NCBI GenBank assembly: GCA_965218795.1
Contig: OZ244653.1
Coordinates: 2,720,001 to 2,784,000 of the forward strand
DNA: 64,000 nucleotides
Origin: a bacterium
GTDB taxonomy: Bacteria > UBA8248 > JACPRG01 > G963555815
Direction of reading: 5' to 3'
The notes under the pieces are model-generated. The model was not told the DNA's origin, did no database searches, and saw nothing but the letters and a program-made list of their open reading frames with translations. Shown one piece after another: positions 41,003-64,000 of the stretch. Position 1 is the first letter of the stretch. The number at the start of each line of letters is the position of its first letter. Position numbers and translations under genes: made by a program.

Positions 41003-41209
41003 GTGAATCGCACAACGGAGCAGTTGGCCGGGGAGATTCTGGCCTTTCTGGAAGAGGGCCCGGCGCATTTTGAGGACATCCTGAATCGGTTTCAGGATGT
41101 GAAATATCGGGACATGTTGCGCGCCTGGGGAATCCTTCGAAGAGACGACCGGCTCGGCAGGGAGGTTGAGACGGGAAAGTATGTGCCGAAGGCGATGAAA
41201 TCCCAATAA
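41003..41209 (+). CDS. Small hypothetical protein
   Basis: GGAG RBS plus GTG; amphipathic helices; upstream of the SDR array. Confidence 0.5.
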   Translation: MNRTTEQLAGEILAFLEEGPAHFEDILNRFQDVKYRDMLRAWGILRRDDRLGREVETGKYVPKAMKSQ

Positions 41210-41290
41210 ATTTTTCGGGCCGATTTTCCTCGCCCCGTACTAGCCGTCCCGTGGGAAACGAGAGAGTCATCGAGAAGGCAGGAGGGAAAG

Positions 41291-42052: not shown

Positions 42053-42125
42053 TGCGCTGTTGCCGCAAGGGCGAGGTTCCGTGACCCTGCGCCCTCCCGC
42101 GAAGTCGGTATGAAGAGAGGATCCC

Positions 42126-42908
42126 ATGCTCTTGCAAGACAAGGTCGTCGTCGTGACGGGCGGCGCGCGGGGAATTGGCAAGGTCTACGCGGAAGGCATC
42201 GCGGCTGAAGGCGCCAAAGTCGTCGTTTCCGACATCCGCGATGGGGAGGAGACGGCCGAGGGGATCCGGGCCGCCGGCGGAGACGCCGTCTTTGTTCAGT
42301 GCGACGTCTCTCGCGGTGAAAGCTGCGATACCCTTGCCCGCGCCGCGCAGGATCGATACGGCCGCATCGATGGTCTGGTCAACAATGCGGCGCTGTACGC
42401 GGACCTGAAATACGTCCCATTCGACCAGATCGAGGAAGAGGAGTGGGACCGCGTCTTTGCCGTCAACGTCAAGGGGGTCTGGCTGATGACCAGGGCCGTA
42501 TACCCCTGTATGCGGGCCGAGGGATCGGGTGGAAACCTCGGAGGAGGCCCGAGGAAGATCGTCAACATTGCCTCGGGAACGCCTTTCAAGGGCACTCCCA
42601 AGACCCCCCATTATGTCGTCTCGAAGGGGGCGGTCGTGACCCTGACCCGCGTGATGGCCCGGACCTTGGGACCGGAGGGGATTAACGTCAATTGCGTTGC
42701 CCCGGGTCTGACGCTGAGCGAAAGCATCATGGAAACCCGGGCTGACATGATCGAGGAAGAAGATGCCAGGCAAATTCTGACCCGGGCTATTCCGCGAAGC
42801 CAGGTTCCTGAAGATCTCGTGGGAGCCATCGTCTTCTTTCTCTCGGAAGGGGCGGATTTCATCACCGGGCAGACGCTGCCCGTGGACGGCGGCTCCCATA
42901 TGAACTGA
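42126..42908 (+). CDS. Short-chain dehydrogenase/reductase 2
   Basis: TGGARGIG, NNA, YVVSK. Confidence 0.93.
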   Translation: MLLQDKVVVVTGGARGIGKVYAEGIAAEGAKVVVSDIRDGEETAEGIRAAGGDAVFVQCDVSRGESCDTLARAAQDRYGRIDGLVNNAALYADLKYVPFDQIEEEEWDRVFAVNVKGVWLMTRAVYPCMRAEGSGGNLGGGPRKIVNIASGTPFKGTPKTPHYVVSKGAVVTLTRVMARTLGPEGINVNCVAPGLTLSESIMETRADMIEEEDARQILTRAIPRSQVPEDLVGAIVFFLSEGADFITGQTLPVDGGSHMN

Positions 42909-42990
42909 GGGCGGCTCCGGGAAGGGTTTCCCCCCCCTCGGCGGGCGGCAAAAAAGCGTGCAGCCCCATGTTGCTGAAGAATAAGACCAT

Positions 42991-45333
42991 CTAGAACCGG
43001 ATTCCGAGATTGAGGAGGCCGGCGTATTCCTGATCATCCGAACCCGGGCCGCCCGCTGTCGCCTCGCCGCTGAGCGCGAAGCGGCCCCAGCGATAGACCC
43101 CGCCCAGACCCAGCAGAACCCGGGTTGTCCTTGGTTCCCGACCTGAGCCGCTCTCCCGATACCTCAACGGCCGTTACCCCGCCCCTGAGCGTCTGCTCGA
43201 CATCCACCGAACCCCGAAGGGAGAGCCTGCGCGCCCCGCCGTCCCAGACGCGAGCGGTCTCCGCCCTTGAGTTGCTTCGCATCGGTGAGCTTGACCCGCG
43301 AGTTCACCGCGTCGGTGAACTTGTCCATGGAAATCCCGGAGCGGCTCACCCACACCCGAGGCGTCAGGCTCATTCTCTCGCCCAGCGCGATGCGCCGACC
43401 CGTCTCCAGGCTCAGGGAGTGACCGACCGCGCTCGCGTCCCCCATCAGCCGGCCCCGCCTGTCCGTGGAGATATCCACCTTGTAGCCGGTCACCGAGAGG
43501 CGGCCATCGACATAATAGCCGCTCGCGCCGCCCCAGGACACGCCCAACCCCGCGCCGAAGCCCTTCGCGTCGATATCCCCGCCCCCGACCGGTGATTCGA
43601 CGTCCGCCGAAGCCTGAACATGCCGCACCGAGATCGAGCCGGTGATGTCCTTGTTCCAGGGAAACGCGACGTCCACCCCGGCTTCCGCCGTGAGGCGCTT
43701 GAAGTCGTACGCCGCGCCCACGGTCGAGCGGTCGGGATCATGCGTTCCCCCCCCGCCCGAAAGCCTCACCCACACCGGCGAGTCCGGAGACCGCAGACGC
43801 TCCCCAGACGCTCCCCGGCCGGACCCCGGCCGTTCAGCCGAAGCAGGAATCCGGGAAGCCCCTCGTAGACGGCCGCGCGCGGCGCATACGCCTCGATGAA
43901 CTGGAGGCGCCCCTCCCTGGCGAGCACGCTGACGTCCCGTGCCCCGTTCGGGGCCGTGAGGCCGGTGGCGCCCGTCGCGCCGTCGTGCAGCTTCACGTTG
44001 TTGACCACGATCGTGGTCTCGCCGGCGTCGTTGCGAATCTCGCCATCGATGACGCGCGCTATCCTGCGGGCGCCGAGATTCGCCGAGACGTGGAGTTTGG
44101 GCGGATTCCCCGCCGCGCGGATCGCCACCCCGGAAGGCGCGCCGACGCTCCCCTTCGGCCCGATGACGACCTTGCCGCCGCCCGCGAGCCAGACCCCCGC
44201 CCCCTCGCCGGAGCCGCCCATCACCCGGCCGTTCACCGTGACCGTCTGCCGGCGGTAGCCGTCCTCGCCCATCCCGGCGGCGCGCACCACTTCTCCTTGG
44301 GTGTTGAGGGCGCCTATCCGGACGCCGCTCGCGTTCTCCCCGTCGGCGCTGACCGTTCCCCCACCCACGACGATGCTGATTTCTCCCATACCAGAATCAT
44401 GCCCGGCGTAAATGCCGTGGGAACCATCGCCTTCGGTGCTGATCTCGCCGTCCATCATGACGATTGTGATGTCGCCTTTGCCTTTGATGACGTTGCCGTC
44501 AGGGTCGGTGAGGGGGTTGAAGTCAGCATCGGTAGGGTTGCTATGCCGACTATAGATGCCGTAGGAATTCACCCCCCTCGTCGTGATACGGACGCCCCGA
44601 ACGCCGATGTCGATATCGCCTTCGGAGCCTCGATGATCACCGTTGATGCCGTGGGAGAAGGTGCTGCCGTAGGTGGGATCGATGTCCGTGCTTTCCGTTG
44701 TGATGGTTCCGCCTCGAACGTCGATGGTGATGTCGCCGGAGTTTTGACGAAGGCCATCGACGCCGTGGGACAGGACGCCCTTCGTCGTGATGGAGCCGCC
44801 TTGAACGCCGATGTTGACGTCGCTGTTGTCTCTACTATGGAAGCCGACTCTGACTCTACTATGCCAGCCGAAGACGGCGCTGGTATTAGCGCCCGTTGAC
44901 GTGAGGTCGGCGTCTCGAACGGCGATGTCGATGTTGCCGCCGCCGTCATGCAAGGCATAGACGCTGCTGGAGCCATCCGTCGTGACGCTGCCGCCTTGAA
45001 TGTTGATGTTGACGTCGCCGTCGCCTTGACGCTGGGCAGAGACGCCAACGGCGCCATTGCCGTCCGTCGTGACCGTGACGTTTTGAACGTCGATGTTGAC
45101 TGATGCCGTCCATAGATGCCGTGGGCAGCACTGTCCGTCGTCGTGATGGTGAGATCCTGAACGTCGATGTCGATGTCAGCCGTGGAACCGGCGGACTCCT
45201 CGCACTCGATCCGCTGTCCGGTCTCGGGCGTGTTGCTGCATACGGCCGTCTGAGCCTGCGCCTCTCCGACACTGAGAGCGAACGCCGCGGCCAGCATCAG
45301 GGCGATGGCGCCCATCCGCGCCCGCGCGCTCAC
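42991..45333 (-). pseudogene. Autotransporter with repetitive passenger, several frameshifts
   Basis: Signal peptide (GEAQAQ); IDIDVxxxxITTxGxxxHGIY repeats; YAPRAAVYEGLP linker; barrel fragments ending YAGLLNLGIRF-TAG at 42991. Confidence 0.8.
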
Positions 45334-45629
45334 GCCCCGCCTCTTACTCTAGGAGTCTGGAGTCTGGACCGTACCACATTCATGAAATGCAAACAAGACT
45401 GGGACGCAGGAGCAATCATTTGGAATCCTCACCCGTGAATTCTGCCTGAATTGTCATACCTAACCTTTACTCCTTTACTCCTTTACTGCCAGCACTCTAC
45501 CCTAAATATTCTCTCTAATATTCTACCCTCATTCCTGTCCAGTGGACTAAGGTACGCCTCATTGTCGGCGCGACAGCGATGAACCCTTCGGTTGAAACAC
45601 CTGAACATGTGGATTAGATTCTTCTATGA

Positions 45630-46007
<378 letters not shown>

Positions 46008-46064
46008 ATCGGACGGAATGAGGAGCATCCGTCCCGCGGTTTCAGGTGATCCGGAGGATGAGAC

Positions 46065-46826
46065 ATGCAGCTGAGAGACAAGGTCGTGATCGTTACGGGA
46101 TCGGCCCGCGGAATCGGGAAGGTGTACTCCAAAGCCATTGCCGCGGAAGGCGGCAAGGTCGTCGTATCCGATATCCTCGACGGTGAAGGCGCGGTCGAAG
46201 AAATCCGCGGTGCGGGCGGAGAGGCGATCTATGTTCAGGCGGATGTGACGGACGAGGCAAGCGTTGAGCATCTCGCGGGAGCCGCCAAAGCGGAGTTCGG
46301 ACGCATCGACGGGCTGGTCAACAACGCCGCCTTGTTCGCCGACATGCGCTATGCGACCTTCGATCAGGTCACGGTCGAGGAGTGGGACCGAATGATGGCG
46401 GTCAACGTCAAAGGCGTTTGGCTGACTTCCCGGGCCGTATACCCGCATATGAAAGGGCAGGGCTCCGGAAAAATCATCAACATCACGTCCGGCGTTCCGT
46501 TTAAGGGAACCCCGGTTTTCGCGCATTACACGGTGTCGAAAGGGGCCGTCATTACGCTGACCCGGGTGTTGGCGAGATCGATGGGGAAGGACGGCATCTG
46601 CGTCAACGCGGTCGGGCCGGGGTTGACCCGCAGCGAGAGCCTGGCCGCCGCCCGGGGCGACGAGCTCATGGATGCCGACGAAAAGCTCCAGGTCGCCAGC
46701 CGCGCCATTCCACGCGGTCAGGTGCCCGAGGATATCATCGGCGCCATCGTGTTTTTCCTCTCGGACGGAGCGGATTTCATTACCGGCCAGACCCTGGTGG
46801 TCGACGGCGGGTCACATATGAACTGA
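46065..46826 (+). CDS. Short-chain dehydrogenase/reductase 3
   Basis: TGSARGIG, NNA, YTVSK. Confidence 0.93.
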   Translation: MQLRDKVVIVTGSARGIGKVYSKAIAAEGGKVVVSDILDGEGAVEEIRGAGGEAIYVQADVTDEASVEHLAGAAKAEFGRIDGLVNNAALFADMRYATFDQVTVEEWDRMMAVNVKGVWLTSRAVYPHMKGQGSGKIINITSGVPFKGTPVFAHYTVSKGAVITLTRVLARSMGKDGICVNAVGPGLTRSESLAAARGDELMDADEKLQVASRAIPRGQVPEDIIGAIVFFLSDGADFITGQTLVVDGGSHMN

Positions 46827-46969
46827 TTCGGAAGGCCTGTTTCGAAAGCGGAAGAACCTTCGAATCGGCAGGTCCGAAGCTGAAGCTGAAACGTCATGTT
46901 CGCCGGTCGGGGCGCAAGACCTCGCGTCCCCGCGGGCAGTTCTCCTGTCGCGAACGGAGGAATGGATCG

Positions 46970-48370
46970 ATGAACTCAAATATCGGCTCGAATGGCGCGG
47001 GCGCGAACCTCAACGGTCGGATCCCCTACCGGGATATGCGGGGCCTCCTTGATCACCTGGAGGAAAACGGGGAGCTCCTTCGAATCTCCAAGCCCGTCCC
47101 GCCCAAGTATCTCCATACCCTTCTGGCCAAGTCGGATCAGGCCGTCCTGTTCGAAAACGTTCAGGACTATGACATCCCGGTCGTCGGAGGGCTGATCGGG
47201 TCCAGACGCCGCCTGGCTCTGGGTCTGGCGAGTGACGAGAAAGTGCTGGGGCGGAGCTTCATGGAAGCTCTGGAGAATCCGCTTCCGGCCGAGGTCACAT
47301 CCGACGGCCCGGTCAAAGAGGTCGTGAAGGTTGGGGATGAGGTGGATCTCACGGACATTCCCATCCCTTTCCAGCACCGCAAAGACGGCGGGCCTTATAT
47401 CTCGGCCGGAATCGCCGTATCCAAAGACGAGGAAGGCCGCCGGAACGTCGGATGCTACCGCCTGATGTACCGGACGCCGAACGAGACCGGGATTGACCTC
47501 GTGTCGCCGTCGGACATGCGGTTCACCTACCAGCGGGCCCTGGACCGGGGCGAATCGCTGCCCATCGCCATCGCCCTCGGAACCGGTATCCCGGAGATCC
47601 TCTCGGCAGCCTACAAGGCCCCCCCGGGTTTCGATGAATTCGCGGTGGCGGGCGCGCTCTACGGGGAGCCGATCCAGCTCACCAAGTGCGCCACGGTCGA
47701 TCTGGAGGTGCCGGCTTCAGCGGAGATCGTTCTGGAAGGGGAAATCTCGGCGGACGGCTGGACCATCGACGAGGGACGGTACGGGGACTTCACCGGTCAT
47801 CAGTGCTCGATCCGGTGGAACCCGGTGTTCAAGGTCAAGGCCGTTACCCACAGGAAGAACCCCATCTTCCAGACCGTGTTCATGCCCTGGGAGAACGACT
47901 GGCTGGAGGCCCCGCCCATGGAGGCCGCGGGCTGGCGGGCGCTCCGCGAGGCCAGCGTCCAAACCACGGCCGTCTATTCCACGCCGGCGAGCTGCTGTTA
48001 TTGGCACTTGTTCGCTTCCATCAAAAAGCGGCCGGGCGAGGGAAAAAACGCGCTGCTTGCGCTGATGTCTCTCCATTCGGTCAAGCTCGTGATCGTGACG
48101 GACGATGACGTGGACATCACGAACTGGATGGAGCTGGAGCGGGCGATGGCCTTCCGTGTCCAGCCGGACGAAGACGTGGTCATCGTCTCAGGGGCCCGGG
48201 GCAAGCATTTGGACCCGACGCTGCGGGCCTCTCAATTGCCGAAGGGCGCGCTGCCCACGACGTCGAAGATGGGAATCGACGCCACCATCCCGGAAGGGAT
48301 CGATCGCTCGGAGTACGAGCTCTTGGAATACCCCTTCCTGGACGAGGTGAAACTCGAGGAATACTTGTAG
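46970..48370 (+). CDS. UbiD-family decarboxylase 2
   Basis: DGGPYIS, NVGCYR, AEIVLEG, EGRYGDFTGH, TDDDVDI, MGIDATIP. Confidence 0.92.
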   Translation: MNSNIGSNGAGANLNGRIPYRDMRGLLDHLEENGELLRISKPVPPKYLHTLLAKSDQAVLFENVQDYDIPVVGGLIGSRRRLALGLASDEKVLGRSFMEALENPLPAEVTSDGPVKEVVKVGDEVDLTDIPIPFQHRKDGGPYISAGIAVSKDEEGRRNVGCYRLMYRTPNETGIDLVSPSDMRFTYQRALDRGESLPIAIALGTGIPEILSAAYKAPPGFDEFAVAGALYGEPIQLTKCATVDLEVPASAEIVLEGEISADGWTIDEGRYGDFTGHQCSIRWNPVFKVKAVTHRKNPIFQTVFMPWENDWLEAPPMEAAGWRALREASVQTTAVYSTPASCCYWHLFASIKKRPGEGKNALLALMSLHSVKLVIVTDDDVDITNWMELERAMAFRVQPDEDVVIVSGARGKHLDPTLRASQLPKGALPTTSKMGIDATIPEGIDRSEYELLEYPFLDEVKLEEYL

Positions 48371-50409: not shown

Positions 50410-51036
50410 TTACGGCCGGTAGTGAATGACCCGCATGGGCTTCAGCGCGCCCGCGTTGCAGGGATTCCTTTCCTGGGGGCAATTGGACATGGCCGCCAGA
50501 ACGTCCATGTCCGCCAGGAAGTCGATGTAGTCGCCCGCTTTGGATTTGGGCTTCTGGATGCTGAACCTGCCGTCCGGTTCAACGGGGCAGTTCATGAAGA
50601 CGTTCATGTTGTAGGGGACGTCTTTCCAGCCGAGGCCCCAGGGCTTGACGGCCGCGGCAAAGTTGTCCCGGCAGTTCGGGGTATCCTTGACGCCGTAGCG
50701 GTATTCGTTGGTGAAGCGGGAGCAAGCCCCCGCAATCATGTCGTGAACGCCGCACGTGTCTTCGATGATGGTCATCAGCTTTCCGGCCTCATCAGAGAAC
50801 AGGGTATAGCCGACCGTTGGATAGATGTGTCCGTTGAGGTTGATCGTGTTTTCGGGCGAGAGCCTTTCCTCCAGCCGGTTCAGGTTGAAGGCGAGGAAAT
50901 CCGCAACCTGCTGGCCTTCGATGTCGATGAGGCGGAGGACTTCCCCGGCCCGAATCTCCCCGGCGTAATGCCCGCGGGGGTCGATGATCTTGTCTTCGAG
51001 GACTTCACCCGTCACTTTTTCCGCGTCCGTTGTCAT
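50410..51036 (-). CDS. Urea carboxylase-associated DUF1989 protein
   Basis: DIEGQQVAD, DTCGVHDMIAGAC, NCRDN, NVFMN, SNCPQ. Confidence 0.88.
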   Translation of the reverse strand: MTTDAEKVTGEVLEDKIIDPRGHYAGEIRAGEVLRLIDIEGQQVADFLAFNLNRLEERLSPENTINLNGHIYPTVGYTLFSDEAGKLMTIIEDTCGVHDMIAGACSRFTNEYRYGVKDTPNCRDNFAAAVKPWGLGWKDVPYNMNVFMNCPVEPDGRFSIQKPKSKAGDYIDFLADMDVLAAMSNCPQERNPCNAGALKPMRVIHYRP

Positions 51037-51231
51037 GGCGGATTTCTCCAATGGTTCGCCTGCATGGATATCGAATCGGGATACGTGGTCATTCTAGAGG
51101 GCGTTCCGGCCCGGATCAACCGCCGCTGTCTCCGTGGCCCTTGCCGGTTTGTGCTTGTATCCCTGCGAGGAGTTCACCTGGACTTGGGACGGCGGTTTCC
51201 CGAAAGAACAGTAATGATATATTCGATGAAG

Positions 51232-52020: not shown

Positions 52021-52674
52021 ATGAAGGACGTGACCAATCTGGCGGAATGGGTGGATCCCTCGAAGTCGGCGCTCATCGTGATCGACGTGCAGAACGACTT
52101 TTGCCACTCGGAAGGGGCTTTCGCAAAGCTCGGAACGGACATGGAGCCGATCCGGGAAATGATGCCGCGCTTGCGCAATCTCATGGACGATGCCCGCGAA
52201 GCGGGTTGCCAGGTCGTCATCTTCCGGGTGGCCCGATCTCCTCACGACGACTGGCCCGCGAAACGACGGCTGGATGAGCTGCTGTTCGGGGCCGATGCCA
52301 TCCCCATCGTGGATGAAGGGTCCTGGGGCGCGGAGCTCTGCGAGGGCTTCGAGCCGAAAGAGGGCGACATTCTCCTGACGAAAAATCGGTACGGCGGATT
52401 CACCGCGACCAACCTCGACCTGATTCTGCGCAACCTGAACGTCGATACCATCATCATGACCGGCGTGGCCACGAACGTGTGTGTCGAGAGCACCGCGCGG
52501 GAAGGCTTCATGCTGGATTACAACGTCGTCCTGGTCGAGGACTGCTGCGCGACGACGACCAAGGAATTTCACGAAGGCACCGTGGCCAATATCCGGAGGT
52601 GCTTTGGCCGGGTGGCGAAGGCGGATGAGGTTTCCGGGGTCTGGGCTGAAAAGGGAGCAGCGGTCAAGGGGTAG
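52021..52674 (+). CDS. Isochorismatase-family cysteine hydrolase (RutB/NicF-like)
   Basis: ALIVIDVQNDF, KNRYGGF, GVATNVCVESTAR. Confidence 0.92.
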   Translation: MKDVTNLAEWVDPSKSALIVIDVQNDFCHSEGAFAKLGTDMEPIREMMPRLRNLMDDAREAGCQVVIFRVARSPHDDWPAKRRLDELLFGADAIPIVDEGSWGAELCEGFEPKEGDILLTKNRYGGFTATNLDLILRNLNVDTIIMTGVATNVCVESTAREGFMLDYNVVLVEDCCATTTKEFHEGTVANIRRCFGRVAKADEVSGVWAEKGAAVKG

Positions 52675-52799
52675 ATGAAGCCGAAGATTGAACCCCGAGC
52701 CTTCCGGGACGTGTGAAGTCTCCCGTATCGGGGCGGCCGGACACAGCGCCCTTTTCATTGAAATGGAACGGCCCTGACGGGTGGGAAATCCGGAGGCGG

Positions 52800-53516
52800 A
52801 TGATGATGAGCGGAGAGATATACCAGGATCCGAAGCTCCATCAGAAAGACGACGAGCTCTACCGGAGGCTGGCGGAGGCGGGAGACAAGCGGGAGCTTCT
52901 CCGGGAGTTCGCCGTCCCGAAAGAGAGCGGCAAGGCGTTTGTCGTCGAGAAAGGGCAGATCTTGCGGATCACGGAGATTGAAGGGCCCCAGGTTGCGGAT
53001 TTCAACGCCTTTTCGAAGGACAACCCCCGGGAGATGTTCTGGTCCGGGAGAACGAGAATCTTCCTGGGCGCCCATCTGACGGTCGGAGACCAGCTGTGGA
53101 GTACGCCGCCGAACATGCGGCCGATGTTCACCATCATCGCGGATACGGTCGATCACCAGCCCCTGCCGCACGGAGCCGCGTCGCACGATCTGGTGTTCTC
53201 CAGGTGCAACGAGCGTTATTTTGAAATGTTGACGGGCGAGACGGGCCGGCCGAACTGCCAGGACAACCTGGCCCGGGCCATCGCAGCGTTCGATCTGACC
53301 CCGGACTACGTCCATGACGCCTTCAACATCTTCATGACCACCGGCATCGACGATCAGGACCGCCTTTTCTTCCTCGAGCCGGACGCGAAGAAAGGGGATT
53401 ACATCGAGCTGTACGCGGAGATCGAAACCATCGTCGCGATATCTTCGTGTCCCGGGGGTTGCAGCGGCCCTCAGAACAAGCCGATCGGGATTGAACTCTA
53501 TCGCCCTTCAGACTGA
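52800..53516 (+). CDS. Urea carboxylase-associated DUF1989 protein
   Basis: EGPQVADF, SHDLVFSRC, NCQDNL, FNIFM, SSCPGG. Confidence 0.85.
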   Translation: MMMSGEIYQDPKLHQKDDELYRRLAEAGDKRELLREFAVPKESGKAFVVEKGQILRITEIEGPQVADFNAFSKDNPREMFWSGRTRIFLGAHLTVGDQLWSTPPNMRPMFTIIADTVDHQPLPHGAASHDLVFSRCNERYFEMLTGETGRPNCQDNLARAIAAFDLTPDYVHDAFNIFMTTGIDDQDRLFFLEPDAKKGDYIELYAEIETIVAISSCPGGCSGPQNKPIGIELYRPSD

Positions 53517-54832: not shown

Positions 54833-56065
54833 CTATCGGGATGACTCAATCAGCAACGCCTCGCAATACGGTGCGCGGCTCATGTATTCGGGCCCGTCCT
54901 CCCGCACCCAGATCATGTCCTCGATGCGGACCCCGCCCCCGCCCCGGACGTCCGGCACCCAGATCAGCGGCTCGATGGCAAAGACCATGTTCGGCTCGAA
55001 CTCGACTTCCATCGCGCCGGTGGCCGCCTCGCCGACGTACGGCGGCTCGTTCGGACTGATTCCGCACCCGTGGCCGATATACAGGTTGATGAAGTTCTTC
55101 TCCAGGCCGTGCTCCGCTGCCTTGCCGATGAACGCCTCGGTCGCCTGAACGTTCGTGTGGCCCGGCTTCATCAGGGCCACCCCGGCGTGAAGGCATTCGT
55201 AGACGGCGGTGTAGATCTCCTGCTGTCGCCGTGAGGGCTTGCCGCAGATGACGGTCCTCCCCAGGTCTCCGAAGTATCCGCCCCACATCGCCCCGATGTC
55301 GATGAACACAATGTCGCCGTGACGGATGATCTTGTCCGTGGCGAAGCGGGTCGGGGGGGACATCCGCTCGCCGGAGGCCACGAACGGGCTGGCGACGTGG
55401 GCGAATTCCCCGCCGTACCGGAACAGCGTCCGCATGGCCTCTGCCGCGACCTCGCACTCCCTCACCCCGGCCCGGACGTGGTCGATGGCCGTCTGCGTGA
55501 CCGCATCCGCAATGGCCGTGGCCTCCTGAAGGGCCTTGATCTCGTCGGGCAGCTTCTGGACCCGGGACATGTACATGAAGTGCTCGCCGTCCACCCACTC
55601 CACGCCGGAAAGCTCCTGCTCGAAGATCCGGCGCATCGTGAACGTGGCCGCGTCGATGCCGACCTTGCCCTTGTCCACGCCGTATTCCTCCAGATAGGGA
55701 AGGATCTGGTTTCGCGTCACGTTCTCCACCAAACCGGGCTCGGTCATGTGCGGGATGGCCTCGGCGTGGGCGATCCAGGGCATGGACTCCCTGACCCGGG
55801 CGATCTCGCCGCCCGACGTCAACAGGACCGGGTCCGCCTCTTGTGAAAGAAGAACGCCGTAATGCGTGACCGAGCGGTACTGAAGCATGATCGCCCGCTG
55901 GCTGGTCAGGTATCGGACGTTCTCGTCCTGCCAGAGGAGAAGGGCGTCGATCCCTTCTTCTTTCAGGTGACGCTGGGTCTTTTCGACGCGTTCCCGCCGG
56001 AGGCGGTCCCAATCGATCCGGGCTTCGTAATCGACGTTGAAGTGTCCGCGGGCGAATGTCTCCAT
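54833..56065 (-). CDS. M24 family peptidase (Xaa-Pro/creatinase-like)
   Basis: DIG..GYFGDLGRT, GHGCG, AIEP, RIED. Confidence 0.9.
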   Translation of the reverse strand: METFARGHFNVDYEARIDWDRLRRERVEKTQRHLKEEGIDALLLWQDENVRYLTSQRAIMLQYRSVTHYGVLLSQEADPVLLTSGGEIARVRESMPWIAHAEAIPHMTEPGLVENVTRNQILPYLEEYGVDKGKVGIDAATFTMRRIFEQELSGVEWVDGEHFMYMSRVQKLPDEIKALQEATAIADAVTQTAIDHVRAGVRECEVAAEAMRTLFRYGGEFAHVASPFVASGERMSPPTRFATDKIIRHGDIVFIDIGAMWGGYFGDLGRTVICGKPSRRQQEIYTAVYECLHAGVALMKPGHTNVQATEAFIGKAAEHGLEKNFINLYIGHGCGISPNEPPYVGEAATGAMEVEFEPNMVFAIEPLIWVPDVRGGGGVRIEDMIWVREDGPEYMSRAPYCEALLIESSR

Positions 56066-56114: not shown

Positions 56115-57089
56115 TTATGCGGAGAGGCGCTTCCTGAGGCGGTCGATAAAGAGGTCTTGCGATTGATGAATTCGAACCGGCGATCGGAGGCGGGCCAGAC
56201 GGCGCTTCAGCGTGGAGGTCGAAGACGAGGGCCCTCTCTCCTGCAGGATACCCTCCATCCGCCCGGCCTGCTTCAGTTCCGCCCGGATCTGGGGGTCCGT
56301 CCAAAGCGCCCGCAGGAAGGGCAATGCGCCCTCCGTATGTTCCCAAAGGTCTCCGCACCGATCGGCATAGGCGGCGCTGCCGTTGGCTCCTTCGCTGCCC
56401 GAAGCGGTTTCGTCCTGTCCGGCCTCTTCCGCCCTGTCCTCACCCGCGCGGTCCGTCCCGCCTTCCGCGGGTTCGCCCAACAGCGCCGTCACCTCACCCG
56501 GGGTCAGGAAAAAGGCGCGGCGCATTGTGGAGACCGCGCTCCCCACGTCTCCGCTGGCGAAGAACGCCAGGCCATAATTCATCAGCCCGTCTTCGTACCA
56601 GGGAATTTTTTCATACTCCTCGATCGCTTCCTTGAAGCGGCCGAGACGCAGTTCGCATTCGCCCATGAGATGACGAATGAATTCGGAAGGCTCATAACCC
56701 TCCGCGACGGCCTGGTGGAACTCCGTTCTGGCGATCTCCCACGAACCGGATTGCCAGGAGGCGATTCCTCTGAGGGCGTGGGCTCCCATCACCACCTCGC
56801 GGATGCCCTGAATGCCCTTCCGTCCCGGGGCCTCCGCGGCCTGGAGCGCGCGATCGTACCACTTGGCGGCAGCCGAGAGGTTGCCCAGCCTCTGCTGAAC
56901 CCGTCCTTTTTCGAAGTAGGCTTCCGGACAGTGGGGATCGGTTTCGGCCGCCTTCGTGAACTGAATCCACGCTTTTCTTCGAGCCCCGACGGCCCAGAAG
57001 TCGACGCCCCGCTTGACGTACTCCAAAGCCCGGCGTCTTTTGTCCGCGGGCGCCTTGGATTGCGCGGCTGCCGTTCGTGCCGAAGACAT
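56115..57089 (-). CDS. Tetratricopeptide repeat protein
   Basis: EAYFEKG..LGNLSAAAKWYDRAL, LGRFKEAIEEYEK repeats; start uncertain. Confidence 0.7.
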   Translation of the reverse strand: MSSARTAAAQSKAPADKRRRALEYVKRGVDFWAVGARRKAWIQFTKAAETDPHCPEAYFEKGRVQQRLGNLSAAAKWYDRALQAAEAPGRKGIQGIREVVMGAHALRGIASWQSGSWEIARTEFHQAVAEGYEPSEFIRHLMGECELRLGRFKEAIEEYEKIPWYEDGLMNYGLAFFASGDVGSAVSTMRRAFFLTPGEVTALLGEPAEGGTDRAGEDRAEEAGQDETASGSEGANGSAAYADRCGDLWEHTEGALPFLRALWTDPQIRAELKQAGRMEGILQERGPSSSTSTLKRRLARLRSPVRIHQSQDLFIDRLRKRLSA

Positions 57090-57295: not shown

Positions 57296-58285
57296 CTAGC
57301 CCCGAAACTTCGGGATGACCTCATTGGCAAACCGGCGGAAAGAGGCGAAATCCCAGTGAGGGACCATCCCGAAAAAAATGTGTGAGACGCCTGCTTCGTG
57401 ATACTGGCGAACCCGCTCAGAGACGGCATCCGCATCGCCGGCGATCAAGCTCCGGCGAAGATCGTCGGCCGACCCGTTGATTCTCTTCGCGGTGCTCTCG
57501 ACCACCCGGTTCGCTTCCTTCGGATCGTCACTTACGTGAATCATGGCCAGGACGGATTTTTCGATCTCGTCGGGGTCGCGTCCCTCCGCCTCGCAGTGCC
57601 CGCGCAGCACTTCGATCTTCTGTCGGAATACGTCGGGCGTGCCGAAGGTGTTCCAAAGGTTCGCATGACGGGCAACCGTTCGAAGCGTACGCTTCTCTCC
57701 GCCCCCGCCCACCATGATCGGCGGATGCGGCTTCTGGACGTTGGCGGGATTGCAGAGCGCATCGCGCAGTTGATAATACGTCCCCTCGTAACTCACCTTG
57801 CCCTCCTGACCCTTTGTCCAGAACAGTCGGATGAGCTGGAGGGCCTCCTCCAGCCGCTCCAGGCGTTCCTTCACGGGAGGGAAGGAGATGCCCAGGGCAG
57901 CGTGTTCCAATTCGAACCAGGCCCCGCCCAGCCCGAATTCCAGTCGCCCTCCGCTGATAATGTCCACCGTCGTCGCCATCTTGGCCAAAACCGAAGGGTG
58001 ACGATACGTGTTGCCCGACACAAGGATGCCCAGCCGGACGCGCTTCGTCATGGCGGCGATGGCGGAAAGGGCCGTCCAGCCCTCCAGACAGGGGCCCTCC
58101 GGACTGCCGACGATTGGAAAGAGGTGATCGTACACCCAGACCGCATCGTATCCGATTTCTTCCGCTTCCAGGGCGGTGTCCAATATTTGCTGATAGGTAA
58201 CGTCCTGCTGAGGGATCTGGACGCTGAAGCGGGGGGCTCGGCTCGCCGGCCAACCGGGTGTCGGTTCCGGTGCGGGGACGTTCAT
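57296..58285 (-). CDS. LLM-class, probably F420-dependent oxidoreductase
   Basis: GYDAVWVYDH, EGWTAL, NTYRHPSVLAKMATTVDIISGGRL, GGGGEKRTL. Confidence 0.9.
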   Translation of the reverse strand: MNVPAPEPTPGWPASRAPRFSVQIPQQDVTYQQILDTALEAEEIGYDAVWVYDHLFPIVGSPEGPCLEGWTALSAIAAMTKRVRLGILVSGNTYRHPSVLAKMATTVDIISGGRLEFGLGGAWFELEHAALGISFPPVKERLERLEEALQLIRLFWTKGQEGKVSYEGTYYQLRDALCNPANVQKPHPPIMVGGGGEKRTLRTVARHANLWNTFGTPDVFRQKIEVLRGHCEAEGRDPDEIEKSVLAMIHVSDDPKEANRVVESTAKRINGSADDLRRSLIAGDADAVSERVRQYHEAGVSHIFFGMVPHWDFASFRRFANEVIPKFRG

Positions 58286-58361: not shown

Positions 58362-59072
58362 TCAGATCAGATTGATGCGCCTGAAGTAATTGATGAAGAT
58401 TTGCCGGGCCTTCTCATGAAGAGGGCCGATTCGCTCCCGGCATCCAGCCTCGATCGGGGGGTCGTCAATCGAGTCGTTCGTGGTTTCCACGTCGCCGGGA
58501 TAGGCGGCGCACCATTCCCGGATCATGGGCTCGGTCACCTCGACGTGAAACTGAAAGGCGTAGGCGTTCCGGTTCAGGCAATAAGCCTGATGGCCATACA
58601 TCTCCGAGCCGGCGAGAAGAACGGCCCCCTCCGGCAGGTCGAAGGTGTCGCCGTGCCAATGGAAGACGGGGAATTCCTCTTCCATCCCGGCAAAAACGGG
58701 GTCTGCCCGCGACTCGGGCGTCAACCGGATCGGCCGCCAGCCGATCTCCTTGGCGTGCCCGGTCTTCACCTCGGAGCCCGCCGCCTTGGCCAGGAGCTGG
58801 GAGCCCAGGCAGATGCCCAGGATGGGCACTTTCTCCTCCAGGCAGTTTCGAATCAGGATGTCTTCATCCAGAAGCCAGGGATAGGCGGTGTGCTCATAGA
58901 CATTCATCGGACCGCCCATGAGGATGAGGCAATCGATTCCGGAATGCGTCTGGGGGATGGGATCTCCCAGATATGGGTGAAGGTAGCGATACTTCAGCCC
59001 GTATTCCTTCAGTATGTCCTCGAGCAGGCCCATCGGTTCGCAGCCCACGTGCTGGATGGTCAGGATGCTCAT
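58362..59072 (-). CDS. Type 1 glutamine amidotransferase
   Basis: MGGPM, GICLGSQ, FHWHGD, QFHVE. Confidence 0.92.
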   Translation of the reverse strand: MSILTIQHVGCEPMGLLEDILKEYGLKYRYLHPYLGDPIPQTHSGIDCLILMGGPMNVYEHTAYPWLLDEDILIRNCLEEKVPILGICLGSQLLAKAAGSEVKTGHAKEIGWRPIRLTPESRADPVFAGMEEEFPVFHWHGDTFDLPEGAVLLAGSEMYGHQAYCLNRNAYAFQFHVEVTEPMIREWCAAYPGDVETTNDSIDDPPIEAGCRERIGPLHEKARQIFINYFRRINLI

Positions 59073-59423
59073 GGTCGAATCTCCGTTTTTCGCCTTGGGC
59101 CGAAGGGAATCGAGTCGGTGCCCGGCTTGTATCCCAGACCGGTTGGCTTGACTGATCGCCTTGGCCGGATGTTAGCAAAAGGGGTATTTTCCTTCAACCG
59201 GAGCCGCAGGAGGGCAGGCGGGTCGGACGGGAAAAAAGGCCGGAACCGGCTTGACCTGCACCCCTATGGACTCCGAACGTGGTCCTTTACATTTGACGAA
59301 CGCCTGAAAGAAGATGCACCCTTCAGGTTCTGCCGAGTGGTTTCTCGGGCCGGGGCTGTTCCCTGGTCCGTGATTTGGGATAAAGTGCGCATGGGTGACA
59401 AAGAGAATTCGAAGGAGGAGGAG

Positions 59424-60077
59424 ATGAAGCCGAGAGGCGAATTCGGCAGAAATCCGCCGAGCAAGTTCTATTCGTTCCTGTTCTTGAACTGGTGGAAGCT
59501 CATCAGGATCAAGTTCAACAAGAAGGTCTCCGCCGTCTATGACAATTTCCCGAAAGTGTCGGAGTTGGGCTCCATGATCCCGACGGTGGAGCTTGAAACC
59601 ACGGACGGACGCCGAATCAACACGGCCGACTTCATTGGGAAGAAGCTCCAGATATTCGAGTTCGGCGCTATCACGTGACCGCCCTATCGGCGGCAGGTGC
59701 CGCACATGGAAAAACTGGCGGAAAAATATGGGGACGACCTCGAGATCTTCAACATTTACGTCCGGGAGCCGCATGCCAATGAGGGGATTTTCGGAAAGTA
59801 TGACGCGCACGGCTCTTATGAACAGAAGATGGGTTACGCCAAAGAGCTGGTTCAGCAGAAGGCCATCAAGAACGTGACTGTCCTCGTCGACGGAATGGAG
59901 CAGAAGACCCACGAAACCTTCGGCTGGCTGCCGAACATGGTGTACGTCGCGGACCGGGAGGGGACCATCGTCTACAAGGCGTCCTGGACGAAACCCGAGG
60001 TCCTGGAGGGTGTGATTCAGGAGGTTCTGGCCGAGGAGGAGGAAGAAGAAAAGGACAAGGAAGCCGTCCCCGCGTGA
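59424..60077 (+). CDS. Iodothyronine deiodinase-like (thioredoxin fold) protein, probable selenoprotein
   Basis: RBS GGAGGAG plus ATG at 59424; FEFGAIT-TGA(59676)-PPY continues in frame to IYVREPH, VLVDGM, FGWLPN. Confidence 0.85.
59690..59703 (+). promoter_or_regulatory. Candidate bacterial SECIS hairpin
   Basis: GCGGC-AGGU-GCCGC, starting 11 nt after the UGA. Confidence 0.55.
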
Positions 60078-60124
60078 GGTGAGCGGCTCCGTCTCTCGGG
60101 TCCACCATGACAAGGCGATCGGAG

Positions 60125-60439
60125 TCATTCGACCGCCTTTTTCAATTTCGCCAGGACGCGCCGGAACCGGGGGAGCACGACGACGCGGGCAATGGCCTTC
60201 CGGACTTCTTCCAGGTCCAGCGCGGCGCCTGCCCGAAGGCGCACATCCGCCCGGTCAGCGGCGAGTTGAACGTCTGCCGATTCGACTTCCGGGAGCCCTT
60301 CCAGGGCTCGCTTCACCCGATCTGCTCAGAGACCACAGAGCATTCCCGAGACCTGAACCGTCTCTCCGTCCGGAGTGGGGGCGGGCTCGCCCGGATCCGC
60401 CGCCGGCTCTACAAAAAAGTTTTTGAGCTTGAGTTCCAT
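60125..60439 (-). CDS. Heavy-metal-associated (CopZ/MerP-like) protein, probable selenoprotein (CGLU)
   Basis: VQVSGMLCGL-TGA(60326-60328)-ADRVKRALEGLPEVESADV matches GMxCxxC..V..AL; start codon uncertain. Confidence 0.78.
60293..60309 (-). promoter_or_regulatory. Candidate bacterial SECIS hairpin
   Basis: GAGCCCU-GGA-AGGGCUC, starting 16 nt after the UGA. Confidence 0.5.
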
Positions 60440-60444
60440 AACCC

Positions 60445-60572
60445 GTATGACCAGGCTTCTTTCCTCGCAGATTGGATAAACGTCCTGACCGTGTCGATGG
60501 GTTGACTGCCCATGCCGCGCCAGCCCTGATGAGGGCGCTCGTTGCTGTAGAATTTCAGGTACACGTCAAGGT
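60445..60572 (-). mobile_element. IS481-like 3' remnant, copy 3
   Basis: NLDVYLKFYSNERPHQGWRGMGSQPIDTVRTFIQSARKEA. Confidence 0.65.
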
Positions 60573-60600
60573 TCTTCCCTCGCAGCCCGCCCTGTGTTGC

Positions 60601-60853
60601 CTGGATTCCTGCCTGCGAAGGAATGACAGACAGAGAACCCGCGGAATGGATTCCTGCTGCATGTCCCTGCATGTCTTCGTCGCGCGGGGTCTGCCCTGCG
60701 TGTATTCGGCAGGGGGGCAGGTCTTCGAGGCCCTCCGCCCCGTGGGTCTGAAAACGGCGCTTGTACTCCTTGTCATTCCCGCGGAGGCGGGAATCCAGCG
60801 TTGCCCGGGCCATTCGTTCTTCACGCCCCTGAGCCGGTCGCGGCAGGAATGAC
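60601..60853. repeat. Cluster of dRS3/RPE-like palindromes
   Basis: CTGGATTCCTGCCTGCGAAGGAATGAC (60601), GTCATTCCCGCGGAGGCGGGAATCCAG (60772), partial copies. Confidence 0.8.
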
Positions 60854-61133
60854 AGCGGAAGACCCTGGTCGCAATCTTCGTCTCCGCTCCACAATGATTC
60901 AATATCCAGCTTAGTGCCGGACGGTGAGTTTGCCAAATACGGATGGGAGAGACCGGGCCATCGCGAAAGGGACGATCTATCGGGACCCGCAGGCGGATGG
61001 AGGCTTTGCCCGGACGGTTGAACCTTCAAGGGCGCCCGGTTATCCTGAGAGCGGGAATGAGAAGTCTATGATTCTCGCCGGCAAGAATCTCGCTGAACGC
61101 CGGCCGTGAAACACTTGAGGAGGAGAGGTCAAT

Positions 61134-61373: not shown

Positions 61374-61667
61374 CGGTCGTTCTTTCCTGGGGGAGAGCGG
61401 TCGGTCATGCGCTTTGGTGCAAGGCCGGCCGCTTTTTTACGGAATGAGTAGTTATGGGCTTGAAGGGGAAGTTGATTTCTCAGATGAAGCCGGTAGAAGA
61501 AATGTCGAAAGATACCTCAAGGAGAGTGGTCTTGAAAACGATGAGGAGGCAAGACGAGAAGTTCTCGCTGTCGACAAGCACTTGAGAGAGATATGTGAGC
61601 GATTGCACAAAAGATTAATAGTCAAACTGATACCTGAATGCTTTCTCTATCTCATCCTTTTCTCCTA

Positions 61668-62166
61668 CTATCGAGCAAGCGAACTTTCACTGACCCAGGC
61701 CGGCAACTGCTCAATATCCTTCATGTCATCGAGTTTCTTCGTGAGCTTGTATGTGACGGATTGGCCTTCGGCCATGCGAACGAGTCTGCCAGCTCGCCCT
61801 TCAGCGATGTCTCCTTTCCGCCAGACGTTGAACACAATCTCATGCGCGACAAATTCCGAGACACAACAGATATCCGTAATCCCTGTCCAATCGAACGTGG
61901 TTGAACTGGAACGTCCCATTCGCTCCCAGAGAGGCCGTCTTGATCTCGAACCGATGCCTGCCAATGCGCATATCGGTTTCCGACGTCCGATCACCATTCC
62001 CGATGTCGATACCCGATTGTGTGAGGTAGCGTCGGACGAACTCTTCTCCGATTTCGCCCCGGTTGGTATTGCCAAGGCCCCTATAACCCTGGAACGGAGA
62101 ATCATCCCATATGGATTTTGGAGCGTGTTCCCGAATGCTCTCTACGAGAAGAGTGATTGGAGTCAC
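61668..62166 (-). pseudogene. Putative PD-(D/E)xK restriction endonuclease, frameshift near 61846
   Basis: GEIGEEFV..ETDMRIGRHRFEIKTA..FQFNHVR; GTG overlaps MTase stop; C-terminus continues in another frame. Confidence 0.6.
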
Positions 62167-62861
62167 GCTGGCGGTTCCCAAATGCCGCCCATCTCTCCTC
62201 GTTTCCAGAAGACGAGAAAGAATGAATGATTCTTGCGGGCATGCACTTGACGAACGACGCGGCTGACACCTGGACGGTTGTTCCTGACGACCACGAAAAG
62301 GTCCTCCGCGACGAAGCCCATGTCTTGATATGCCTGCATGATTTCGACGTGGGTGAACCTCTGACGATTAGAGCATACCTCGTCTTGACATTTCACAATC
62401 AGGACACCGCGTTCGCGCAACACGCGGCAAGGTTCCTTCCCCGCCTCGTAATAGAGCGATAAAACCGCTTCATGATATTTTCCGTTCGTCCGGTTCCCCG
62501 ATCCGTTGTTGCGGTAATGGTCCTCGAATGGTTGCTGGGTGGAATGTGCCGTCCCGCCGGGCGAATGCATATAGGGCGGGTCAAGCACGACGCAATCAAT
62601 CTCTCCATCTTCGTAGGGAAGATCACGACAATCTGTTCCGTGTTGAATGTCGGATGCTCGAAGCTGGTATCTGTCTTGGGAGATGTTCCGCCAGAAAACG
62701 CCTTTGCCGCAGGTGACATCCGCAACGACGCTGCCAGGGGCAACATACAGGTCGAGAATTCGCGGGAACACCTGATCGTTCCCATCCATGTAGGCACTTG
62801 GTACGAGGTCTCTGGTTGGCTCTCCGTTTCGCACCATACGGTGCATAGTTGATTGGTTCAT
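62163..62861 (-). CDS. Amino (N4/N6) DNA methyltransferase
   Basis: ADVTCGKGVFW (motif I) then VVLDPPY (motif IV), RVLRERGVLIVKCQD; RBS AAGGAGG. Confidence 0.85.
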   Translation of the reverse strand: MNQSTMHRMVRNGEPTRDLVPSAYMDGNDQVFPRILDLYVAPGSVVADVTCGKGVFWRNISQDRYQLRASDIQHGTDCRDLPYEDGEIDCVVLDPPYMHSPGGTAHSTQQPFEDHYRNNGSGNRTNGKYHEAVLSLYYEAGKEPCRVLRERGVLIVKCQDEVCSNRQRFTHVEIMQAYQDMGFVAEDLFVVVRNNRPGVSRVVRQVHARKNHSFFLVFWKRGEMGGIWEPPA

Positions 62862-62963: not shown

Positions 62964-63365
62964 CTAGTTTCGCACATTGTACTTGTAGCAGGCTTCATCG
63001 CTATAGGCATCCGCGTGCTTTCGAGTGTAGTTGTGGTGGGAGCCGAACCATGCACATTTCAGAAGTGCCCAAAATCCCTCGATGGTGTTGATGTGGGTTT
63101 CGCCGTCTGCATACTGAACGCTATGGTTGATGACGGCGTGATTCAATGACCTTGGAAGCGGTTGTATCCAGAGTATTCATCCGTGATCAACAGGGTTTCG
63201 TCAGGCTGAATCTTGTCCCTGATGAATCCTCTAAGACTGTTGAACGTGAGCTTGTCGGCGGCCTGTGCGGTCACCTTTCCGCCCCGCTCAATGGCGCCGA
63301 TAACCGGCATCTTGTCCGTTCCGTGGCCGCGCTTGTGGGGCTTGTCGTCCTTCCGGTTGTCCGCT
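62964..63365 (-). mobile_element. IS1595-family transposase remnant (5'-truncated, frameshifted)
   Basis: KRGHGTDK.PVIGAIERGG, LITDEYSGY / HAVINHSVQY..HINTIEGFWALLK. Confidence 0.85.
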
Positions 63366-63369
63366 GGAT

Positions 63370-64000
63370 TCAAAAAATTCCGGAGGTCCGTAAAAAAAGA
63401 TATGCCGCCGTGATGGAAAGAATGCAGTTCAGGAGCGTTTTCAGCGAGCGGTCCATCAACCGGGGAACGAAGACTGCACCCAGTTGAGCTCCGATGATTC
63501 CCGCCGCGGTCGTTGTCCAGACAACGGCGGGGTCGATGTTCCCCTGCCCCCAGTGAGAGAAGGTTCCGACAACGGCGGAAATCAAGATGGTCATGAGTGA
63601 TGTCCCGATTGCGACACGGAGCGGGATCTGCATGAAACCTACAAAGGCCGGGACTTTCAGGAATCCGCCCCCCACCCCGAGCAGCCCGGTCAGGAATCCC
63701 ACCCCGCCGCCGACCAGCACCGCCTTTGAAACGTTTACTTGATAGGTAACGGGCCGGTTCCCGATCCGGACCGTCTTGGTGTAAGCCCAACGACTTGGTT
63801 TCTTCATGTCCGGCGGGTTCGCTGCAACGGTCGATTTCCGATTGATGAGGTAAATCCCTGCGACGACGCAAAACCCAAGCAGGATTTGAAGAATCCTTCC
63901 AGGCACTCGAGCCGTCAAAAGGGACCCCAAGACAGTCGTTACGATGGTTGACAGGGTGACGATAACCCCCAGCCGCCAATCGACGGTCCCCTGAAATCCA
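63370..64000 (-). CDS. Sulfite exporter TauE/SafE family protein, runs off window end
   Basis: GFLTGLLGVGGGFLKVP, AIGTSL, GAQLGA. Confidence 0.88.
   Translation of the reverse strand, partial: GFQGTVDWRLGVIVTLSTIVTTVLGSLLTARVPGRILQILLGFCVVAGIYLINRKSTVAANPPDMKKPSRWAYTKTVRIGNRPVTYQVNVSKAVLVGGGVGFLTGLLGVGGGFLKVPAFVGFMQIPLRVAIGTSLMTILISAVVGTFSHWGQGNIDPAVVWTTTAAGIIGAQLGAVFVPRLMDRSLKTLLNCILSITAAYLFLRTSGIF

Follow-up and report, generated by a model that had tools for sequence, protein, structure and literature searches.

A deiodinase-like selenoprotein gene with a credible in-frame SECIS hairpin in a bacterial genome that encodes the selenocysteine decoding machinery

Bacterial relatives of the animal iodothyronine deiodinases have been in print since the Sargasso Sea selenoproteome survey of 2005 (Zhang, Fomenko, Gladyshev, Genome Biol, PMC1088965), which, in its available excerpts, describes bacterial 'deiodinase-like' proteins of Pfam00837 that contain either selenocysteine (Sec, U) or cysteine, reports bacterial selenocysteine insertion sequence (SECIS) elements for them, and proposes that their function is a redox one, distinct from the deiodination of thyroid hormones. 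In reviews of 2022 and 2026 (PMC9312934, PMC13188914), as excerpted, the family is assigned the motif UxxC, and the 2026 review states of its selenoprotein list, which includes the deiodinase-like family, that nearly all entries are bioinformatic finds whose functions are largely unknown. The gene that we analyze here, located at positions 59424..60077 (+) of a 64,000-nucleotide stretch of bacterial DNA (the window; contig OZ244653.1 of assembly GCA_965218795.1, positions 2,720,001 to 2,784,000), is a further member of this selenoprotein family. A preliminary description of the gene, made from its sequence, had called the bacterial homologs predicted and functionally uncharacterized; this agrees with the literature as excerpted, and our full-text search of a limited literature collection yielded no study that addresses the function of any bacterial deiodinase-like member.

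Like the bacterial proteins described previously, which, according to the same excerpts (PMC1088965; PMC9312934, PMC13188914), belong to Pfam PF00837, occur in Sec and Cys forms, and are encoded with a SECIS element directly after the UGA that has a G in its small apical loop, the window gene shows each of these features. Compared with the animal enzymes Dio1–3, in which Sec is catalytic, its predicted product has the same thioredoxin fold with a peroxiredoxin (Prx)-like N-terminal strand pair and a deiodinase insertion, and keeps the G-x-x-T-U-P-P-F, Tyr-x-x-Glu-x-His, and loop-D His features at an overall identity of about 21–23%. In contrast to the animal deiodinases, it lacks both the N-terminal transmembrane anchor and the proximal and distal Cys residues, the latter employed by Dio1 and Dio3 for re-reduction, and its SECIS element is of the bacterial type and lies inside the coding sequence, whereas that of the animal genes lies in the 3' untranslated region.

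The coding sequence specifies 217 residues followed by a terminal stop TGA (60075–60077) when the UGA at codon 85 (59676..59678, +) is translated as Sec, an assignment that follows from the retention of TGA in relatives and the presence of Cys in homologs. Its ATG start codon (59424–59426, +) is abutted by a Shine-Dalgarno-like purine run, GAAGGAGGAGGAG (59411..59423, +), read from the sequence. The list of open reading frames (ORFs) shows the frame open upstream as far as 58311; we placed the start at 59424 because similarity in our ortholog alignment (A1) fades just 5' of this ATG, and because the upstream frame overlaps a GATase gene on the opposite strand. A promoter/terminator scan of 59000–60700 detected no promoter-like site. 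In the translation, Sec85 lies within the active-site motif F80-G-A-I-T-U-P-P-Y88 (59661..59687, +), which fits the pattern G-x-x-T-[U/C]-P-P-[FY] also seen in the metagenome loci described below, and is followed by Y112-V-R-E-P-H117 (59757..59774, +), which a hidden Markov model (HMM) alignment with the mouse enzymes Dio3 and Dio2 identifies as the counterpart of the animal YI[ED]EAH motif. The length, the Sec position, and the motifs FGAIT-U-PPY and IYVREPH (residues 111–117 of the readthrough product) are therefore as the preliminary description had reported them. A downstream ORF of 126 residues starting with GTG (59697..60077, +) is also present in the ORF list; this is the fragment left when gene callers stop at the UGA, and not a separate gene.

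The UGA codon is retained throughout the relatives of this gene. The aligned codon is TGA in L010 and L011, the two ortholog loci taken from genome contigs, and in a metagenome scan that used a six-sequence alignment as its query, with the best 80 of 204 relatives kept, all 80 loci (35–79% identity) contain one in-frame TGA within G-[ASN]-[IVL]-T-U-[PA]-P-[FY]; in 79 of them this is the sole stop within the range matched, whereas L035 contains one more. Thus, an in-frame TGA is common to 82 of 82 fetched subfamily relatives (two genome loci and 80 metagenome contigs), down to 35% identity. Within the phylum, PF00837 matches were found in 45 of 51 genomes, at 1–4 copies per genome; exactly one TGA is present in 76 of the 77 matches listed, and G-A-[IV]-T-U-P-P-[FY] in all 30 phylum loci fetched. 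One ortholog, L011 (L011:6001-6690; 83% identity), which derives from a metagenome-assembled genome, carries a 1-nucleotide insertion (A1 column 429) that shifts the frame after residue ~128 and reflects either an assembly error or a pseudogene.

In the wider family, Cys typically takes the place of Sec. An exhaustive search of representative proteins gave 1698 matches at E ≤0.001, of which the best 150 were listed; 140 of these were aligned, ten longer than 400 residues having been dropped, and Cys is found at the Sec site in 114 of the 125 that span it. The other 11 (P0014, P0041, P0042, P0072, P0073, P0076, P0094, P0134, P0138, P0151, and P0158) have Ser (five), Ala (two), or Asn, Gly, Trp, or Arg (one each) at this position, and may have lost their activity or acquired another role. 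A word-index search gave eight close database proteins (73–98% identity), all of them only 120–125 residues long and covering the C-terminal 50–56% of the query, while P0013 is a called protein of 84 residues that ends exactly at the UGA site, and other listed fragments begin just past it; gene callers therefore cut deiodinase-like genes at this codon. Relative to three orthologs, 19–22 of the 84 codons before the UGA differ synonymously and 19–26 non-synonymously, and the corresponding numbers for the 118 codons after it are 42–44 and 15–21; judged by these codon differences, the region 5' of the UGA is under coding constraint.

The genome itself, a single contig of 5.17 Mb in which this is the only PF00837 locus, encodes SelA, an adjoining SelB, SelD, and a tRNA-SeC with the anticodon tca. 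Its SelD (G000:C1:5147448-5148413) is itself a selenoprotein, with an in-frame TGA that places U in GGUGSK. SelA is present in 49 of the 51 phylum genomes, and the phylum thus uses Sec throughout; as a consequence, co-occurrence of SelA with the deiodinase-like gene is uninformative. The preliminary description had foreseen that its reading would fall if Sec machinery were missing, or if homologs lacked Cys or Sec at this site; SelA, SelB, SelD, and tRNA-Sec are all present, and the site holds Cys in most representatives and an in-frame TGA in every metagenome locus kept.

A bacterial SECIS element is predicted within the coding sequence at 59679..59721 (+) on the basis of its fold, its covariation, and a comparison with synonymous recoding. 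In its apical hairpin, 59690–59694 pair with 59699–59703 around the loop AGGU (59695–59698), which corresponds to positions 15–19 and 24–28 when the U of UGA is counted as 1, and leaves a spacer of 11 nucleotides after the UGA; the E. coli fdhF element also begins 11 nucleotides after its UGA. The minimum free energy fold of the region (-19.9 kcal/mol) additionally contains a lower stem. Among 73 distinct 45-nucleotide segments, the loop is AGGU in 46, AGUU in 20, CGGU in six, and AAGU in one, and the stem appears in compensatory variants (GGCGGC/GCCGC[CU], GCGGGC/GCCCGC, GCCGGC/GCCGG, GGGCGA/UCGCCC, and GGGGC/GCCCC). In the ungapped alignment, 81.5% of the cells in hairpin columns 14–19/24–29 are paired, as compared to 69.3% after shuffling, and the covariation score is 0.370, as compared to 0.181; neither value was reached in any of 500 shuffles, and the covariation score exceeds those of all six slid controls. 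Many of the unpaired cells stem from clades in which the register is shifted by one base.

The hairpin is also stronger than the encoded peptide demands. When the amino acid sequence was held fixed and synonymous codons were redrawn, stems of at least 5 bp formed in 20% of cases, as compared to 66 of the 73 observed sequences, and the mean stem length was 3.28 bp, as compared to 5.85 bp observed. The first two loop bases are supplied by the codon for residue 91 and the last two by codon 92, and residue 91 is Gln or Glu in 71 of the 75 distinct Sec forms that we compared, Gln being found in just 21 of 141 family-representative rows. The hairpin 11 nucleotides downstream of the UGA that had been pointed out in the preliminary description is therefore real, covaries, and exceeds the synonymous-codon null. 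The stem CCGCC/GGCGG that had been put forward as its competitor does exist (positions 4–8 and 14–18 from the U), but it shows no covariation (0.057 as compared to 0.039, with 54 of 500 shuffles as high). Taken on its sequence features, the hairpin after the UGA at 59676 is a credible SECIS. The peptide R-R-Q-[VL]-P encoded by this element (59688–59702; also in L016 and L019) resembles a segment of mouse Dio2 (9h48), which reads PPF-TRQLP-AF as compared to the bacterial PPF-RRQLP-PM, a likeness that could be either a coincidence or the relic of a bacterial SECIS in the animal gene.

The product of 59424–60077 is a member of the iodothyronine deiodinase family PF00837, and of its bacterial 'deiodinase-like' group. 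The Pfam model T4_deiodinase matches it with 59.5 bits (E 3.8e-16; cut-off 27), as compared to 30.4 bits for Redoxin and 28.8 bits for AhpC-TSA (cut-off 26), both of which also exceed their own cut-offs, though narrowly; the contest between T4_deiodinase and AhpC-TSA proposed in the preliminary description is thus decided in favor of the deiodinase family. The NCBIfam models for ResA (26.8 bits, cut-off 170) and TlpA (19.8 bits, cut-off 230) match weakly. When a profile of 60 homologs was searched against all PDB sequences, mouse Dio3 (4tr3) ranked first (E 4e-27) and Dio2 (9h48) next (2.7e-22), followed by ResA-type thioredoxins from E 5.6e-15, and there was no bacterial deiodinase-like structure among the matches listed. 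In a FastTree tree, which is unrooted and weakly resolved at its deep forks, the window protein falls within a group (support 81) whose 57 rows are all Sec forms, and Sec groups, at least two in number, stand among the Cys forms.

The AlphaFold2 (AF2) model built on the homolog alignment has a mean predicted local distance difference test score of 94.9 and a predicted template modeling score of 0.91. Foldseek placed Dio2 first (E 8.3e-11) with ResA-type chains close behind, and thus, taken alone, leaves the two deiodinases undistinguished from thioredoxins of the ResA type. VIA-align likewise ranked Dio2 first (Z 19.8, root-mean-square deviation (rmsd) 2.8, 162 residues aligned); Dio3 (Z 18.3, rmsd 3.5, 165 aligned) is tied with the DsbE-type chain 3gl3_A (Z 18.3, 136 aligned), the ResA/DsbE-type chains in general reach Z 17–18.3 over 133–137 residues, and the 1-Cys Prx chains AhpE and Bcp reach Z 16.7–16.9. 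The alignments with Dio2 and Dio3 are longer by about 28 residues than those with the ResA/DsbE-type chains, and this surplus corresponds to the deiodinase insertion. The 1-Cys Prx/AhpC-TSA proteins share with the window protein the fold, the clan, and the logic of a single nucleophilic chalcogen served by an external reductant, but the window protein has the deiodinase insertion and lacks the Prx signature P-x-x-x-T-x-x-C, having Ala82 at -3 and Phe78 at -7 relative to U85, and Thr at -1. The ResA/TlpA/DsbE proteins are similar in fold, but their C-x-x-C redox pair is missing here, the corresponding residues being U-P-P-Y with no second Cys.

The residues surrounding the Sec are strongly conserved. 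G81, T84, and P87 do not vary among the 75 distinct Sec forms, in which the putative network residues are kept in 75 (T84), 74 (Y112), 73 (E115), 74 (H117), and 67 (H129) cases. In the HMM alignment, these network residues land on the motifs FGS-x-T-C(U)-PPF, YI[ED]EAH, and QH/AH of mouse Dio3 and Dio2. His129 (codon 59808–59810, +) lies inside the counterpart of the deiodinase-specific insertion (residues ~118–150; 59775..59873, +), which aligns to the Dio3 segment ...PQHRSLEDR.... For Dio2, a catalytic proton relay of Ser127, Thr129, Tyr157, Glu160, His162, and His182 has been proposed, according to the available excerpts of a 2024 paper on the Dio2 structure (PMC11592359); T84, Y112, E115, H117, and H129 align with the last five of these. 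Of the Dio3 His202-Arg275 substrate clamp, the His counterpart, H117, is kept, and the alignments to Dio3 and Dio2 stop before the Arg275 region.

The window protein contains no Cys at all, as do 47 of the 75 Sec forms; no column of the Sec-form alignment reaches a Cys content of 20%, and position +3 after U holds Phe (45 Sec forms) or Tyr (30), and never Cys. This differs from the UxxC motif that the reviews, as excerpted, tabulate for bacterial deiodinase-like proteins; either there is a further Sec subtype, or the motif in the tables does not describe the UPP[FY] subfamily. Residues 11–44 (59454..59555, +) form an aromatic and basic N-terminal extension with three helices predicted by AF2 and the pattern P-x-G-P-L-x-G-x-W-S-x-x-Y-L-[ND] conserved in Sec forms. 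In a crude hydropathy test for a membrane anchor (Kyte-Doolittle, 19-residue window, threshold 1.6), the window protein reaches a maximum of 0.59, and 0.38 within its first 60 residues, and none of 68 Sec forms has a hydrophobic window of at least 1.6; 29 of 120 mostly Cys-form representatives carry an N-terminal hydrophobic segment long enough for an anchor. Hence, the product is predicted to be a soluble, Cys-free thioredoxin-fold protein of 217 residues, located in the cytosol.

The neighborhood of the gene is variable. Upstream of it, on the opposite strand, lie genes for the GATase already mentioned (58362–59072), a luciferase-like monooxygenase (57296–58285), a TPR protein (56115–57089), and an M24 peptidase/creatinase-like protein (54833–56065), and beyond these are two DUF1989 genes (50410–51051 and 52713–53516), an isochorismatase gene (52021–52674), an NYN-domain gene, and a rhodanese gene. 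The orthologs in L010, L014, L027, and L031 likewise have isochorismatase and M24 genes nearby. Downstream, the ORFs at 60107–60505, 60409–61029, and 61414–62229 have no Pfam match and no counterpart in orthologous loci, and a DNA methylase gene (62163–62861, -) and an IS1595-like transposase gene (63143–63979, -) mark a break in synteny; in L010 and L014 a molybdopterin oxidoreductase gene follows instead, which in L010 precedes a 4Fe-4S/NrfD gene. Across 41 homologous loci of less than 85% identity, the most frequent neighbors are a luciferase-like monooxygenase (five loci), an unannotated family (five), and the M24 peptidase (four), and no neighbor family occurs in more than five.

Further upstream, genes for two UbiD-family decarboxylases (46970–48370, +, and 32299–33708, -), a LigB-type ring-opening dioxygenase (39235–40080, -), and a xanthine-dehydrogenase-type molybdoenzyme (29825–32251, -), together with three short-chain dehydrogenases/reductases and a lactate permease in the same region (29825–48370), suggest a cluster for aromatic or heterocycle degradation. 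The preliminary description had accordingly placed the gene in an aromatic-catabolism region; the catabolic genes are indeed in the window, but they lie 11–30 kb upstream and no neighbor is widely conserved, and the tie of the gene to aromatic catabolism is weak. A paralog clade shows a different setting, in which the Sec deiodinase-like gene lies directly 3' of a same-strand FR47/GNAT acyltransferase gene and converges with a major facilitator superfamily (MFS) transporter gene, beyond which is an isocitrate/isopropylmalate dehydrogenase gene. This arrangement, which may represent a module for the handling of small molecules, was found in 20 of the 30 phylum loci (L093–L122) and in four metagenome loci (L058, L059, L061, and L063), which are kin and hence non-independent; the window copy does not have it.

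Based on these features, we propose that SelB and tRNA-Sec would decode the UGA at 59676–59678 as Sec, directed by the in-frame SECIS hairpin, and that Sec85 would serve as the single redox center within the Thr84/Tyr112/Glu115/His117/His129 network. Its selenolate might attack the electrophilic atom of a small molecule, namely a hydroperoxide oxygen or an aryl-halide halogen, while the Tyr-Glu-His-His relay could protonate the leaving group. The resulting Se-OH or Se-X form would then be reduced by an external thiol, such as thioredoxin or a low-molecular-weight thiol, which we propose because the protein has no resolving Cys; Dio3 and Dio1 can be reduced by dithiothreitol when their conserved Cys residues are absent, as stated in the excerpts of PMC11592359.

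A number of observations weigh against our assignment of the gene as a Sec-decoded deiodinase family member. The single-sequence fold of the hairpin region has a z-score of only -1.79, and an Rfam search over 59000–60500, at E values up to 10, returned chance matches only and no SECIS family. The TGA-containing pattern retained in the metagenome loci was drawn from Sec forms and therefore describes the subfamily and not the whole family. The NCBIfam model NF038285 (deiodinase_rel, a hypothetical equivalog of 347 residues) gives 78.4 bits against a cut-off of 250, the match being restricted to profile positions 177–325, and the Z scores of Dio2 and Dio3 exceed those of the ResA/DsbE-type chains by just 0–1.5. 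Within the active site, where the animal enzymes have the relay Ser (Dio2 Ser127), the window protein has Ala82 (in the 75 Sec forms, Ala 63, Ser 11, Asn one; Ser in 96 of 141 family-representative rows); mouse Dio3 and Dio2 have Glu or Asp where it has Arg114 (59763–59765), a residue found in 124 of 141 family representatives that could, given its bacterial specificity and its place near the active site, mark a different chemistry; and its loop after His117 is ~5–8 residues shorter than in the mouse enzymes. The full-length Sec product of 59424–60077 is itself a prediction. Contigs of at least 99% identity from four libraries, two labeled as metatranscriptomes of sponge metagenomes and two whose RNA label was guessed, cover 59621–59773, 59784–60021, 60048–60174, and 60059–60222, but they are short, of low depth, and uninformative as to strand or level, may stem from DNA carry-over, and include only one that spans the UGA (X18, 59621–59773), from a library whose kind was guessed; we regard this cover as weak evidence of transcription. 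Alternatively, the UGA could be a true stop in a split or decaying gene, of which at most the ORF from 59697, or from Met95, would be translated, and in line with this gene callers annotate only the halves and the ortholog L011 is frameshifted. Yet relatives down to 35% identity, and 45 genomes, keep TGA at this codon together with conserved, in-frame sequence on either side of it, a covarying SECIS follows it, the Sec machinery is complete, and the C-terminal half alone would, in the AF2 model, lack strand beta1 and the thioredoxin-fold active site. We therefore consider a true stop extremely unlikely; as far as its sequence can tell, 59424–60077 very probably belongs to the deiodinase family and is truly decoded with Sec.

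What such a protein acts upon is a matter of more graded expectation: a disulfide or some other substrate has about an even chance, a hydroperoxide-type substrate would be less likely, and an aryl halide less likely again. The only chemistry characterized for the deiodinase family is reductive dehalogenation, and if the window protein followed the animal mechanism, it would, as a dehalogenase of the kind that the preliminary description had suggested, deiodinate or debrominate halogenated phenols or tyrosines, feeding aromatic catabolism or detoxification, through an Se...X halogen bond, an Se-X intermediate, and protonation of the ring carbon. In keeping with this, the window protein retains every deiodinase-specific feature, namely the Thr that precedes Sec, Y-x-x-E-x-H, and the insertion together with its His, T-U-P-P-[FY] equals the animal motif, the window holds the two UbiD genes, LigB, and the molybdenum hydroxylase, the paralog of relatives sits between an acyltransferase and a transporter in a small-molecule-handling context, and parts of the gene occur in libraries labeled as sponge metagenome, sponges being rich in bromotyrosine compounds. 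Against it, the aromatic genes lie 11–30 kb off behind unrelated genes with no neighbor family in more than five of the 41 loci, the near-universal presence of 1–4 copies per genome in the phylum looks more like housekeeping than niche catabolism, and the relay Ser is replaced by Ala and the mouse Glu/Asp by Arg114; moreover, our search of a limited full-text collection found no assay of any bacterial member, and the 2026 review, in its available excerpts, calls the functions largely unknown. We consider reductive dehalogenation of this kind unlikely; that the protein is specifically a bacterial deiodinase-type reductive dehalogenase, which debrominates or deiodinates halogenated metabolites derived from tyrosine or phenol via Se...halogen chemistry, seems quite unlikely. 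A phylum-wide, multi-copy distribution with no catabolic operon would suit a housekeeping redox role, such as that of a thiol-dependent hydroperoxide reductase acting in antioxidant defense through an Se-OH intermediate, in the manner of a 1-Cys Prx or a glutathione peroxidase; the Redoxin and AhpC-TSA scores above their cut-offs, the alignment of the AhpE and Bcp chains, the single Sec in a soluble protein with no resolving Cys, the near-invariant Arg114 near the motif in bacterial members, and the 'redox function' proposed in the excerpted 2005 paper (PMC1088965) are consistent with such a role. T4_deiodinase nevertheless outscores AhpC-TSA by 30 bits, the Prx signature is missing, and the deiodinase insertion, which obstructs the A-type Prx interface according to the excerpts of PMC11592359, is present; this role is possible but doubtful. 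The protein could also resemble ResA, TlpA, and DsbE in being a thiol:disulfide (selenenylsulfide) oxidoreductase, acting on a protein or low-molecular-weight disulfide or persulfide. In favor of this, such chains are next best by sequence (E 5.6e-15) and level with Dio3 in fold (Z 17–18.3), five of 141 family members have C-P-x-C, which resembles CxxC and places a Cys at +3, and the reviews, as excerpted, give the family motif as UxxC. Against it stand the lack of Cys at +3 in all 75 Sec forms and the Cys-free window protein, which is, furthermore, predicted to be cytosolic. ResA and TlpA are extracytoplasmic, and an activity of this kind appears very unlikely.

The value of this gene lies not in surprise but in providing a documented test case for the twenty-year-old question of what bacterial deiodinase-like proteins do: it is the single copy in a single-contig genome that has the full Sec machinery, with a covarying SECIS and a high-confidence structural model. 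In public gene calls, such genes appear as two separate 'hypothetical' halves. The active site of the window protein preserves the network of the animal deiodinases although the protein is Cys-free, and the gene could be expressed to decide between dehalogenase and peroxidase. Corrinoid and flavin classes of reductive dehalogenase exist. If the bacterial protein were indeed a dehalogenase, it would add a third, cofactor-free class beside these, and the animal hormone enzymes would descend from an ancient microbial enzyme for the handling of organohalogens.

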